Positions 56,001 to 62,000 of a stretch of 64,000 nt of DNA are shown in pieces. A program made the position numbers. Within the stretch, counting starts at the first letter, position 1; each line of letters starts with the position of its first letter. The stretch is from Escherichia coli (GTDB lineage Bacteria; Pseudomonadota; Gammaproteobacteria; Enterobacterales; Enterobacteriaceae): NCBI RefSeq assembly GCF_017348835.2, contig NZ_CP071375.1, one strand, 5' to 3'.

Positions 56001-59000
56001 TCAAATACGCGCGACGGCACCAGATAGTTGAGGAATACGCCGACGACATACACAACCAGTGTCGCCAGAATCCCGGCATACGGCACATGCTGACGACTCA
56101 TTTTCGCCATAAAACTCGGTGCGGAACCGCCCATCGCCATTGAGCGCAGAATACGTCCGGTGCAGTACAGACCTGAATTCAGGCTGGAGAGGGCAGCGGT
56201 CAGCACCACAATGTTCATAATGCTGCCGATATATGGCACACCCAGTTTAGAGAAAAACGTCACGAACGGACTTTGCCCCGCCTGATACGCGCTCCACGGC
56301 AATAACATAACCAGCAACACCACGGAGCCGACGTAAAACAGGCCAATACGCCAAATCACACTGTTAATCGCTTTAGGTACCATGGTCTGCGGATCTTTAC
56401 ATTCTCCGGCAGCTGTACCCACCATTTCAATGGAGGCAAAAGCAAACACTACGCCCTGAATCAACACCAGCGCAGGCAGCAAACCGTGGGGGAAGAAGCC
56501 GCCATTATCGGTGATTAAATGAAAGCCTGTGGTGTTGCCATCCAGCGGCTGACCACTACCGAGGAACACTGTACCTACGACCAAAAAGGTCACAATGGCG
56601 AGCACTTTAATAAGCGCAAACCAGAACTCCATCTCCGCAAACCATTTCACACCGATCATATTCATGGTGCCAACGATGGTAAGTGCAGCGAGCGCAAAGA
56701 CCCACTGCGGCACGCCGCCAAACGCACCCCAGTAATGCATATACAGAGCGACGGCGGTAATATCAACAATCCCCGTCATCGCCCAGTTGATGAAGTACAT
56801 CCAGCCAGCAACATAAGCGGCTTTCTCACCCAAAAACTCACGGGCATAAGAGACAAAACTGCCACTGGAAGGGCGGTGTAGCACCAGCTCACCCAATGCA
56901 CGCAGAATAAAAAACGAAAACAAGCCACAAATTAAATAAACCAGTGCCAGTGCTGGACCCGCCATTTGCAGTCGGGCTCCTGCACCTAAAAACAAGCCGG
57001 TGCCAATCGCGCCGCCAATGGCGATCATCTGTACCTGGCGATTGCCCATCGCTTTGTGATACCCCTCTTCGTGGGCATTAAGCCAGCGGCGTTTCGCGGC
57101 GTGTTGATCTGAAGTGTCGGTGTCGTGTTTACTCATTGCTCTCCCTGATTGCTTTAATGAAAAAGTCATATAAGTTGCCATGAACAATGTTTATTCATCC
57201 TGGCGATGATAGTTATCACCATTATTCTTTATGGGTATAAAACTATCGGCGCAGAATCCTACCTTTTATCGTGTAACGATGCAAAATAATCCCGCTATAC
57301 ATATGTGGGGATGAAGGCGGCGGCGACAAAATAGCAACCTGATGAAATTATGACGGAAACAACCACTATTAGTTTGATGATACCCGACTGCAGTCCAACT
57401 CTTTCGCCACTCGTTCGTCGCTCTGAAAGCCTGTGGTTGCAGTGGACACTGGTGTGGTTGGTCTTCGCTGTTTATCATTGAATAGTGAGGGGCTAGCACA
57501 TGACGGGTTTTAGGGGTAATACGCCAAATACCAATACAATTGCTGATTAGATGTGCCAGTTACCGACGTTACAGAAAGTGCCAAAAAATGTAAGAGGGAT
57601 GTCGGGTGATAAACGCGCTATTGCCCAACAGGAGTTTCTGGAATTAGTCCTGTTCCATGGTCATTACAACTCTTAAAACATTACTTCAATATAATTAATG
57701 TGTATATCATTCTCGATATTAATTTATGAAGTGAATTTGATATATTCCGAATTCTTAATTTACATTACTAATGTATGGGGCATAACGTTAAGATTGATAT
57801 GTGCAGATTAAGATATCAGGGTGGGGCGGTAGCGTTTACAGATATTAATCAATTGATGAGAATTATGTTAACTGCGTAATCATTTTCATCGGTTATTGAT
57901 ATTGAAGATAGATTAATAAAAATGCTGATAATTAATGTTAAGAAATAGAAATGGGAAACGTTGATAACTTGCTTTGATTTCATTTTCTATGAAGATGATG
58001 CCATCAATACTGTATAAAGTAAGAATGTTGAAAATCAAAGAGCGTTTGTGTTTTATCTGAAAGATATTATATCCAGGGGAAAGGATATGTCTTTAAGGAG
58101 AATGACATCTGGTGAATTAACATTGGCTAGATCGATTTTTGAGAATACAATTGATTATAGCAAGGTATGGATCCACAATGAAAAATATCTGCCTGGTCAA
58201 GGGGAAAGAACAGCGATGACCCCAAACGGGGAAATGTATTATCCTGATGCTGTTTATAGTTCAGATTATTCATCGCAAACAATGCCTGGTGATCGTGAAA
58301 CAGTAGCAGGTGCTTCTCACTTGTTTATTCATGAAATGATGCATGTTTGGCAATATCAGAAAGGGTATGCAGTTAAGTTGCGTGGTTTATTTTCCTGGGC
58401 GGCAAATTATCATTACGTTCTTAATTTACAGTCAATTTCTTCTTATTCCATGGAACAACAAGCATCTATAGTTGCTGATTATTGGCTATTGATTAACTAT
58501 GGACTGGTGGCTGATTTGGCAAATGTTAACTATGTAGGTGATACAACTGAATCAGTTAACACTCTATCGGAAAAATACAAAAAGGTGCTTAATTTATTTC
58601 CTGCGGGTGTCATATGAAGAGGTTCTTTTTGTTTTTCTTTTTGTCGGGATGCACTGTTGGTGATTATGTTCGCCCATTGTTACCCGGTAATGTATATTTA
58701 CAAGATGGACGGGTTTGTTCAAAACCAGACGATGGAGATATTATTTCAAATTATATTTTATATGAAGGTAAATATGGCAATGCAATAAAGCTGAAAAGAG
58801 TAACAGGTCAGTTCGATCCCGTATGTATTGACATAAGTGAGCTATCTCCAGATGTTATTTATATCGGGCAATATATGCTCTCCTCCGGAAGTAAAAAAGA
58901 ATACTATGGTTTTAGGATAATTAGATCCGGAGTACGTATTTTAAGACTTGATGATAACCATATCAAATAACAGATTAAAAATTTTATTAGTTTCATTAAT

Positions 59001-62000
59001 GTGCTTTAGGTGAATGTTTTCACCAGGTTAACATGACGGTGCATTCTTCAAGGCATATATGGTTGATAGTATCTTCAGTAGCTCGCATAAGTATTGAGAT
59101 GTTTTACGCCAGTTACGAATATATTGCATATTTTATTCTCTGTAAGATTTCTTATTAGCACTTAGCCATTTCTAGTTAAAAGGATTAATTATGAGTTTTG
59201 CAGCTACAGATTATCCATCCGGCGCACTAACTGGATCGGGTACACATAACGTGACTTTGAGCGGCAGCGCAGTTCCTGATGGAATGTTACTGTTTGCAAG
59301 CTTAGGGGGTACAGAAACAGTAGGGGAACTATTTACTTATTCTATTAAATTAAAAACTCCTGACATCCTGAACCTGGGCTATGTTTCCCCTGCCGCAAAC
59401 CTGCAGCTCAAACCGATGGTGGGCAAAGATCTGTGCGTCCATATCGAACTGGATGGCGGCGGAAAACGTTATATCAGCGGGCTGGTGACGGCGGCACGCG
59501 TGGCTGGTCATCAAGGACGTTCGGTGGTGTATGAACTGCGGCTCGAACCGTGGTTAAAAATACTGACCCACACTAGTGACTACAAAGCGTTTCAGAATAA
59601 AAACGTGGTGGACATCCTGGATGAGGTACTGGATGAGTATCCCTGGCCAGTGGAAAAACGGCTGGTGGAAAATTATCCGACTCGCGCCTGGCAGGTGCAG
59701 TACGGTGAAACAGATTTCGCTTTTATTCAGCGCCTGATGCAGGAGTGGGGTATCTACTGGTGGTTTGAGCACAGCGAGAACAGTCACACGTTAGTGCTGG
59801 CTGATGCCATTAATGTCCACAAGGCATGCGCAGATTCGCCGCTGGTGTGTTATTACCAGAAAGGGCTGAAACTGGACAAGGAGTTTATCCATACCATCAC
59901 AGCAAATGAAAGTCTGCGCAGCGGACAGTGGGTGCTGAATGATTTCGACTTTATGAAGCCGCGTTCACTGCTGAAGAGCACCGTGGCTAATCCGCGTGAA
60001 ACCGGCCTTGCTGAATATGAGCACTACGAATGGCCGGGAGATTACTTCACAAAGAGTGAAGGTGAAATGCTGACACGCATTCGCATGGAAGAACAGCGTA
60101 GCCCCGGTAGTCGGGTACAGGGCAGCGGCAATATTCGTACCCTGATGACAGGTTTTTCCTTCACCCTGGAAAACTATCCGACAGCCGAAGTGAACCGGGA
60201 ATATCTGCTGGTACAGACCACGCTATTTATACAGGACAATGCGCAACACAGCGGCCAGGAGCAGCATTTCTCTTACTCAACCAGTTTTGAACTGCATCCC
60301 ACCAGCGAAGTTTACCGCCCACAACGAACCCTGAGTAAACCCCACACTAAAGGCCCGCAGAGCGCCATCGTCACCGGCCCGGCAGGGCAGGAAATCTGGA
60401 CAGATAAATATGGCCGGGTGAAAGTTCAGTTTGGCTGGGATCGTTACGGTAAGAATGACGAAAACAGCTCCTGCTGGGTCCGTGTCAGTTATCCGTGGGC
60501 GGGTAAAGGATTCGGTGGCATTCAGATCCCGCGCATTGGTCAGGAAGTACTGGTGGATTTCAAAAACGGTGATCCGGATTTACCGATAATCGTTGGGCGT
60601 ACCTACAACCAGGACACCATGCCACCGTGGGGACTACCGGGCGCAGCGACGCAAAGCGGGTTTTACAGCCATACTATCGGCGGCGGCCCAACCAATGCCA
60701 ACGCACTACGTTTTGAGGATAAACCTGGCGGTGAAGAGGTCTGGCTACATGCCGAAAAAGATCAGCGGATTGAAGTAAATAATAATGAAAGCCACTGGGT
60801 GGGCAATAATCGCCTTAAAGTCATTGATAAAACAGAAACAGCGATAATTGGTGAGGAACGTTCTCTTACAGTTCAGATGGATGATACCTCCCTTGCCGGA
60901 CAAAATAAAACGATTCAGGCCGTACAGAATTTACGCCTTGCTGCGGGAGATTCCATAATTCTTAGTTGTGGGAAAACTATCCTGCAAATGACCAGTGACG
61001 GAATATTTAATATAACCTGTAAGAATTTTAATATTACTGCAACAGAAAATGGAAAGATAAATACACAATCAGGTCAGCTTGATTTAAATATGAATGACAG
61101 GGCTGCAGATATACTTCCGCCTGGAGCATCGGAAAAAACAGCCCTTCAGTTGGCGATAGACGTCGCCTTCATGACTAAAAAATAAATAAAAACCATCATT
61201 AAATAATTTATTAATTAAAAAGGACTCATATCATTATGACGGAGTATTATCTCAATGAAACTGTTGTAACTTTTCCCGGGAATATTATTCAGGACAGCAC
61301 TATTAATATGCTGCGCCTCAGCGATCCCGACGCTGCACTCATTATCAGTCGGGGCCAGATGCAGGAAGGAGACGAATTAGCCTCCCAGATTGAACAGCAA
61401 ATGAAAAAACTGGAGAAACAGGTAAAGGATCTTCACTACACGCCCGTTCAGGTAACACGGGTAGGGATTAATGACGGTGAACAAGGGCTGGAAATACAGA
61501 GCCAGTTTCTCAGGGGTAACGAGCAGGTGTACCAGTGTCAGGTGGCATTTGTGTTGCCGGGTGAGCGAGTCATGATGGCCTTCACCTACGCCAGAACCAC
61601 ACCGCTGACCCCGGCAGATATGACGCGCTGGGCTGAAATTAAAAAGAATCTGCGCTTCAGGATGCGGCAGGAAGCCAGGACGAATTAATCATACAGGGAA
61701 CGGGACATGGAAGAGGCATTCTGGGCGGCAAGACAGGGTGATGCCCTGCTGCATACGTCGTTTATGGCAGATGTGCTGGGGGCGGTGCTGGAGGTGGCCG
61801 CAAATGTCGTTATTGATGCCCTCATTGTCGGCACAACCTCGTTACTGGCGACGTCAGTGGGGATCACGATGGGGTGCACGGCCGTCGTGCTGACCGGTTT
61901 TGTGGCGGGTGTGGCGATGGTGTACACCGGCGTGACAGAAAAGGTCAGCGAAGCCTGTTCAGCCCTCGCAAATATGCTTTTCCCGCCTCAGATTGAAGGT

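Follow-up and report, generated by a model that had tools for sequence, protein, structure and literature searches.

Within a stretch of 64,000 nucleotides from Escherichia coli contig NZ_CP071375.1 (assembly GCF_017348835.2), called the window throughout, two overlapping plus-strand genes between ansP and vgrG appear to encode a type VI secretion system (T6SS) cargo effector and its immunity protein. The effector gene, tpe (58087-58617), would specify a stand-alone metallopeptidase of 176 residues, and tpi (58614-58970) its cognate immunity lipoprotein of 118 residues; together they head an orphan island of vgrG, an eagR-like gene and rhs. We hold this reading with a probability of roughly 0.8. 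Homology, fold, conservation of the HExxH+E residues, lack of a signal peptide in the peptidase, tight coupling to a lipoprotein gene, adjacency to vgrG and purifying selection are all observed; delivery of Tpe, the compartment it acts in, the way Tpi protects and the regulation of the genes are inferred from relatives that have been characterised. An earlier note on this DNA had described an AT-rich accessory segment between ansP and vgrG. Accessory and compositionally deviant it is, but that description passed over two intact genes, which overlap by 4 bp (ATGA) and occupy, at 58087-58970, 884 of the 1570 bases of the AT-rich part.

On sequence and model, Tpe is predicted to be a gluzincin-type zinc metallopeptidase of the VgrG2b-C-terminal/Tpe family, acting as free-standing cargo. 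A phmmer search of PDB sequences returned a single match, the effector domain of Pseudomonas aeruginosa VgrG2b (6H56), with an E-value of 1.8e-20 over residues 4-138. In that alignment H82, E83 and H86 of Tpe coincide with H935, E936 and H939, the HExxH motif, and E123 coincides with E983, the third zinc ligand; the roles of these four VgrG2b residues come from a crystal structure and mutagenesis (PMC6899460). All four are invariant in 34 homologues drawn from Escherichia, Citrobacter, Pantoea, Erwinia, Serratia, Yersinia, Enterobacter and other genera. The AlphaFold2 (AF2) model of Tpe has a mean confidence (pLDDT) of 90, and Foldseek ranked 6H56_A first among its structural matches (E = 1e-8, TM-score 0.63, 161 columns), the next hit having an E-value of 1.6. 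Tpe is also 44% identical to the effector encoded in SPI-20 of Salmonella enterica subsp. arizonae (E = 1e-48). The protein has no signal peptide and its N-terminus is not hydrophobic; a Shine-Dalgarno-like sequence, aggggaaagga, stands directly before the tpe ATG.

Existing labels describe this protein poorly. Its name in RefSeq (WP_053883764.1) is either "type IV secretion protein Rhs", a misnomer for a protein that is neither type IV-related nor Rhs, or "hypothetical protein". NCBIfam yielded nothing significant in Tpe. The window protein likewise fails to match PF13699 (DUF4157/eCIS_core), a label often given to the Tpe family; the validated S. arizonae effector also falls under the cut-off of that model, at 14.7 versus 22 bits, and PF13699 is therefore not discriminating.

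Tpi, also a "hypothetical protein" in RefSeq, begins with MKRFFLFFFLSGC, which includes a classical lipobox, L-S-G-C13 (MKRFFLFFFLSG-C13). It resembles the NCBIfam family NF045617, "putative T6SS immunity periplasmic lipoprotein" (E = 3e-8, 33.8 bits), and gave no match to Pfam DUF7480. Compared by hhalign with 26 syntenic lipoproteins from related loci, the Tpi profile scored 96.9% with an E-value of 1.5e-10, and every one of those 26 lipoproteins, when scanned, belonged to NF045617. The joint alignment leaves only G12, C13, C35 and C71 (Tpi numbering) invariant, with Y83 nearly so. A DsbA-dependent disulfide is linked to the conserved cysteine pattern of PA0261, the immunity protein for VgrG2b (Wood et al., PMC6899460), and by analogy Cys35 and Cys71 of Tpi probably form a disulfide. 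A word-indexed homologue search with Tpi found E. coli alleles only. The AF2 model (pLDDT 76) is an all-beta sandwich, for which a fold search of the PDB returned only generic Ig/FN3-like beta-sandwiches with E-values above 0.02.

Gene order ties the pair to the T6SS in a comparison set of 80 related loci from other genomes, 46 of them enterobacterial. A lipoprotein reading frame of 113-156 codons follows the peptidase gene in about 43 of the 46 enterobacterial loci (counted from a per-locus listing), mostly with an overlap of 4 or 7 bp. In the window, vgrG starts 220 bp past tpi, and the AT-rich spacer between them (58971-59190) holds no terminator-like site. Nine further enterobacterial loci, among them that of S. 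enterica subsp. arizonae (L020), show the order peptidase-lipoprotein-vgrG, as do three loci from outside Enterobacterales; in one of these three, from Snodgrassella alvi, a vgrG 66% identical to that of the window is followed by eagR and rhs, just as it is here. In Enterobacter cloacae (L028) and Lelliottia (L036) the gene that comes immediately after the pair is hcp, at 7857-8357 of both loci. In four beta- and gammaproteobacterial loci the metallopeptidase domain itself forms the C-terminus of a VgrG longer than 1000 residues. Serratia marcescens (L016, 7972-8352) and Enterobacter sp. Ag1 (L010, 7988-8344) each carry an extra, orphan immunity paralogue after tpe-tpi.

The family to which these proteins belong was described between 2017 and 2019, is named after Tpe1/Tpi1 of Acinetobacter baylyi and has been worked out for VgrG2b/PA0261 of P. 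aeruginosa (PMC6899460). VgrG2b is toxic in the periplasm in a catalysis-dependent manner, causing mid-cell blebbing and lysis, and is neutralised by direct binding of PA0261 (PMC6899460). The same study already noted that in many Enterobacteriaceae the domain is encoded as a putative cargo effector, paired with an immunity protein that is a lipoprotein (PMC6899460). For SARI_02727/SARI_02726, the S. arizonae pair, validation came in 2026 through experiments on competition, periplasmic toxicity and neutralisation by the lipoprotein (PMC12992299).

The S. arizonae pair, from Salmonella pathogenicity island 20 (SPI-20), offers a close parallel to that of the window: a stand-alone HExxH+E peptidase of about 180 residues, an overlapping gene for a two-cysteine lipoprotein and then vgrG (L020), the two immunity proteins probably sharing a profile family. 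It differs in lying inside a complete T6SS cluster, whereas the E. coli pair occupies an orphan vgrG-rhs island beside ansP. SARI_02726 has 154 residues against the 118 of Tpi, which scores under the thresholds of both DUF7480 and NF045617, and the S. arizonae proteins are experimentally validated whereas those of E. coli are known here from sequence and models. VgrG2b and Tpe share a metallopeptidase fold and a zinc site, and the former is likewise paired with a small, disulfide-containing envelope protein, encoded downstream, that neutralises a periplasm-acting toxin. VgrG2b, however, is a specialised effector, carrying the domain as a covalent extension of the spike after a TTR domain, while Tpe is separate cargo; PA0261 is soluble in the periplasm with a type I signal peptide, while Tpi is a lipoprotein, and the genes of the window run effector-immunity-vgrG. 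Tpe1/Tpi1 of A. baylyi (ACIAD0053/ACIAD0054) comprise a cargo-type metallopeptidase of the same family with the immunity gene downstream (PMC6899460). Tpi1, set beside Tpi by description rather than sequence, differs in having a transmembrane helix that anchors it in the inner membrane.

Using these three systems as models, a course of action may be proposed for the E. coli pair. Tpe would be carried, non-covalently bound, by a VgrG spike, most probably that of the gene 220 bp downstream, and a T6SS encoded elsewhere in the genome would fire it into the periplasm of neighbouring Gram-negative cells, where peptidase activity on an envelope target might lead to morphological defects and lysis. 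Tpi would be exported by the Sec and Lsp pathways and lipidated at Cys13; with Thr14 next to it, the +2 rule would assign the lipoprotein to the outer membrane, on the periplasmic side. There it may neutralise Tpe by binding, protecting the producer and its kin.

Of 5426 complete E. coli genomes, 230 (about 4%) carry the tpe-tpi pair, always on the chromosome; the AT-rich segment was found in 223-230 of the genomes and the vgrG type of the window in 234. Carriers were isolated from pig, poultry (including avian pathogenic E. coli, APEC), cattle, human and water sources. Among seven E. coli alleles compared, Tpe is full-length and keeps all four zinc-site and catalytic residues in 7/7. Ratios of nonsynonymous to synonymous divergence (dN/dS) range from 0.09 to 0.43 for tpe and from 0.20 to 0.38 for tpi, values well below 1, so both genes are under constraint. 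Synonymous divergence between the alleles, with dS of 0.1-0.24, looks high for a comparison within a species. Tpi diverges faster: against strain FHI_NMBU_03 (L002, 6937-7820) it shows 85.6% amino-acid identity, and Tpe 96.6%.

Neighbouring genes have often been broken. A frameshift interrupts vgrG in APEC O2-211 and in FHI_NMBU_03, an internal stop does so in Z1323HEC0475 and an ISAs1 truncation in XJ34, and tpi is frameshifted in 377323_2f; in all five of these loci (L002, L086, L087, L088 and L089) tpe is intact. In RM9387 (L085) the entire island is intact. Truncated variants of tpe also exist in databases, namely P0012 (135 residues, 87 members) and P0015 (111 residues), as well as H59/H60.

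Downstream of the pair, vgrG (59191-61185, plus strand) encodes a T6SS spike protein of 664 residues, the presumed carrier of both Tpe and the Rhs protein, with the Pfam domains Phage_GPD (5e-98), Gp5_trimer_C and Phage_base_V. Its last 400 bp (60786-61185) have a G+C fraction (GC) of 0.40, compared with 0.51 for the remainder; no Pfam model matches the 70-residue C-terminal tail, which may be exchangeable and serve to recognise cargo. The next gene (61236-61688, plus strand), RefSeq's "DcrB-related protein", specifies 150 residues and matches Pfam DcrB at 3.6e-19, from which its product is predicted to be an EagR/DUF1795-type chaperone of the Rhs effector that follows. That effector survives as an N-terminal fragment of the Rhs family with a DUF6531 domain (61707-63074, plus strand), annotated by RefSeq as a pseudogene in strain PE164. 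After about 456 codons the rhs frame breaks off and runs into a 5'-truncated nhoA; its homology to an intact rhs locus stops at 63078, and homology to nhoA begins at 63073. A deletion has taken out the Rhs core, the genes for toxin and immunity and those as far as nhoA, which in other strains are ydcC, pptA and yddH.

Strain PE164 (NZ_CP114128.1), isolated from a pig in Nanjing, has a chromosome identical to the window over 51137-64000 and differing at two positions in the first 50 kb. Elsewhere in the window, going by the PE164 annotation, paaC (2296-3041) is frameshifted and paaK (9256-10569) has an internal stop, so the phenylacetate degradation operon appears inactivated. The same annotation places an IS200/IS605 tnpA with an internal stop beside an intact gene of the insQ/TnpB family at 34314-36021, between ydcL and ydcO.

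The island would run from the ansP side to the nhoA side in the order yncG remnant, AT-rich leader, tpe, tpi, vgrG, eagR-like gene and rhs. Its left neighbour is ansP (55637-57136, minus strand), whose upstream spacer (57137-57302) belongs to the core genome: this first stretch of about 165 bp of the query has matches in 5405 of the 5426 genomes, and identity with BL21 is 99.1% as far as 57286 and is then lost, which places the left limit of the variable DNA. At this site K-12, BL21 and O157 have instead the series ansP-yncG-yncH-vgrG (or its remnant)-rhsE. The K-12-type locus resembles that of the window in its position, the ansP spacer, a yncG gene (intact there) and a spacer segment of 122 bp. 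It differs in that K-12 and BL21 retain no remnant of tpe, tpi or the window type of vgrG, their own vgrG fragment being of another type with no significant similarity to it, and in that the window has no yncH, a search for a counterpart giving only a chance match of six residues. Some other strains carry ISEc1 after the yncG remnant. As for signs of mobility, no tRNA gene was found, and no integrase or transposase reading frame within 57137-61700. A 30-nucleotide inverted repeat bracketing tpe-tpi (57925-57954 and 59166-59195) was considered as a cassette boundary and rejected, since it was equalled in 10 of 60 shuffles.

A decayed glutathione S-transferase (GST) gene, possibly the counterpart of K-12 yncG, had been suggested for the left part of the segment, and this proved correct. 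The short reading frame, with the in-frame stop before it, is present and translates as given: the frame is open over 57335-57478, with an ATG at 57350, a TAG at 57332-57334 and a closing stop at 57479-57481. By tblastn with YncG of K-12/BL21, residues 61-105 match 57341-57475 (56% identity, E = 1e-10) and residues 175-200 match 57509-57586 (54% identity, E = 1.5e-5), two collinear pieces in a shared frame. Residues 1-60 and 106-174 are lacking, and in-frame stops lie between the pieces; the remnant (57335-57601, plus strand) is a pseudogene. K-12 YncG passes the Pfam model GST_N_2 (31.3 bits against a cut-off of 25), whereas the remnant on its own matched no Pfam model, intact GST_N and GST_C domains being absent. 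In DNA it is about 70% identical to K-12 yncG, compared with 99% for the flanking ansP, and it therefore derives from a distant allele rather than from recent decay of the K-12 gene. The same remnant occurs in 786 of the 5426 genomes, and in APEC O2-211 its reading frame is annotated as a hypothetical protein of 39 residues. It would be debris of the gene found at this position in K-12-type strains, with no role in the effector system.

The AT-richness reported earlier is borne out by the GC profile, which sets this DNA clearly apart from the rest of the window. GC is 0.30 at 57621-58086, 0.37 at 58087-58617, 0.345 at 58614-58970 and 0.31 at 58971-59190, giving 0.336 for 57621-59190 as a whole, compared with 0.503 for the window. 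Within the 64 kb, 1-kb stretches below 40% GC are confined to 57001-59500, and the lowest, at 0.345, is about 3.9 standard deviations below the mean (0.503, standard deviation 0.040). The left boundary proposed in the earlier note, 57190, has to move: the first 430 bp are not part of the island, consisting of ansP spacer up to 57302 and then of 57303-57620, with a GC of 0.47, where the yncG remnant sits. Low GC is moreover a trait of the tpe-tpi cassette family, these cassettes exceeding their flanks in AT content at 28 of 30 enterobacterial loci (mean difference 0.11), and it is therefore weak evidence for recent transfer into E. coli specifically.

Repeated motifs resembling high-affinity H-NS sites had also been reported, as a sign of silencing. 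We compared their counts with AT-matched shuffles (first-order Markov). Exact copies of GATATTAAT number two (57715 and 57841) and of TCGATATTAATT one. With one mismatch, GATATTAAT has 19 matches in the whole window against 13.5 +/- 3.8 expected; inside the island, at one mismatch or fewer, it has four against 2.2 expected, a number reached in 50 of 300 shuffles. The motif TCGATAAATT, reportedly the high-affinity H-NS consensus published by Lang et al. in 2007, occurs three times inside the island at two mismatches or fewer, where 4.7 would be expected. The motifs are therefore not enriched, and with counts inside the range of AT-matched chance they lend no support to H-NS silencing. Binding of the island DNA by H-NS is nevertheless plausible on composition, because its GC is 30-37%, and the low-GC leader would be a plausible target through which H-NS could keep the operon silent under laboratory conditions.

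That leader (57621-58086), AT-rich and non-coding, is the probable promoter region of tpe. It contains the 122-bp segment (57717-57838) held in common with the K-12 yncH-rhsE spacer, to part of which it is 76% identical (blastn, 124 columns, E = 6e-20), and a G+C-rich core of about 20 bases near 57816-57838, ATCAGGGTGGGGCGGTAGCG, is perfectly conserved between the two. Genomic SELEX (systematic evolution of ligands by exponential enrichment) in K-12 recorded an H-NS site in that spacer (PMC3946193), which supports H-NS binding of the island indirectly. The mapped K-12 rhsE promoter falls outside the shared piece. Matches to 57717-57845 occur in 4610 of the 5426 genomes at a median of two places per genome, so a second copy of the leader segment lies elsewhere, possibly before another vgrG/rhs island. 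Sigma-70-like sites on the plus strand, 14 against 9.9 +/- 3.4 expected, do not exceed chance. An Rfam search placed no family in the leader; a match to snoR27, a eukaryotic small nucleolar RNA, at 57844-57936 (27 bits against a cut-off of 41, E = 0.33) was dismissed as chance in AT-rich DNA.

Several observations weigh against the effector-immunity reading. Pfam, searched at E <= 0.1, finds no domain in Tpe or Tpi; the fold match of Tpe to 6H56 is moderate (TM-score 0.63); and the NF045617 score of Tpi, 33.8 bits, lies under the curated cut-off of 43. Pairwise BLASTP between Tpi and the S. arizonae immunity protein is not significant, which made profile comparison necessary. The 64-kb window contains no T6SS core genes; PE164 does have a second vgrG-like locus, and a T6SS may therefore well be present. 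The island is decaying, with rhs truncated in the window strain and vgrG or tpi broken in others. Loading of Tpe on the neighbouring VgrG is pure inference, and the literature searched contains no experiment on the E. coli proteins and no paper on the pair or on the ansP-vgrG island.

Of the competing explanations, the one with most to recommend it, which we regard as a possibility well short of even odds, is a decaying orphan module: the T6SS would be missing or silent in this strain, Tpe would go undelivered, and chiefly Tpi would be kept as protection, with tpe hitch-hiking or serving as an addiction partner. The truncated rhs, the inactivation of vgrG in four of seven examined loci and of tpi in one, the truncated tpe variants in databases and the lack of T6SS core genes in 64 kb would all fit, as would the orphan immunity paralogues of Serratia and Enterobacter sp. 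Ag1, which show that immunity genes of the family build up alone. Yet tpe is full-length with its four residues in every allele compared, its dN/dS does not exceed that of tpi, both vgrG and the eagR-like gene are undamaged here, the whole island is intact in RM9387, and PE164 has its second vgrG-like locus. Because tpe stays intact, with dN/dS of 0.1-0.4, where the neighbouring vgrG or rhs is broken, one may also ask whether tpe-tpi depends on the adjacent spike gene at all. Tpe might ride in trans on a VgrG or Hcp from another locus, or tpe-tpi might be a self-contained toxin/immunity module for addiction and defence at an ansP hotspot, and the leader segment at 57717-57838 might be a common regulatory element of vgrG islands; we think this rather unlikely.

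Less likely again is that the region is an acquired, essentially non-functional AT-rich segment silenced by H-NS, with the decayed GST gene its only recognisable content. Its GC of 0.30-0.37 against 0.50, the confirmed yncG remnant, its presence in about 4% of genomes and the H-NS site in the partly homologous K-12 spacer all speak for this. As a complete explanation, though, it is contradicted by the strong effector and immunity homology of the two intact reading frames that fill 884 of 1570 bp and by their dN/dS of 0.1-0.4; the motifs are not enriched, and the yncG remnant sits in the part that is not AT-rich. We give very little credence to a peptidase that works independently of secretion, in housekeeping or stress, beside a lipoprotein unrelated to immunity. 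Such a role might be suggested by the homologues in Sphingomonadaceae, which rarely have a T6SS (Wood et al., PMC6899460), and by the lack of vgrG within 7 kb of most enterobacterial tpe-tpi loci. It is opposed by the conserved order of tpe and lipoprotein gene with translational overlap, by fusions of the domain to VgrG in several lineages, by the vgrG or hcp adjacent in many loci and by the experimental validation of the closest studied relatives.

Read as a T6SS effector and its immunity protein, the pair calls first for a correction of annotation, from RefSeq's "type IV secretion protein Rhs" and "hypothetical protein" to Tpe and Tpi. It would add an E. coli member to the known Tpe/Tpi family of periplasm-acting T6SS toxins, a result that will not surprise a T6SS specialist. 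The ansP locus forms a natural series, from the intact island of RM9387 through islands with broken vgrG, rhs or tpi to the yncG-yncH alternative of K-12, and this series could be used to study the gain, exchange and erosion of orphan effector islands.

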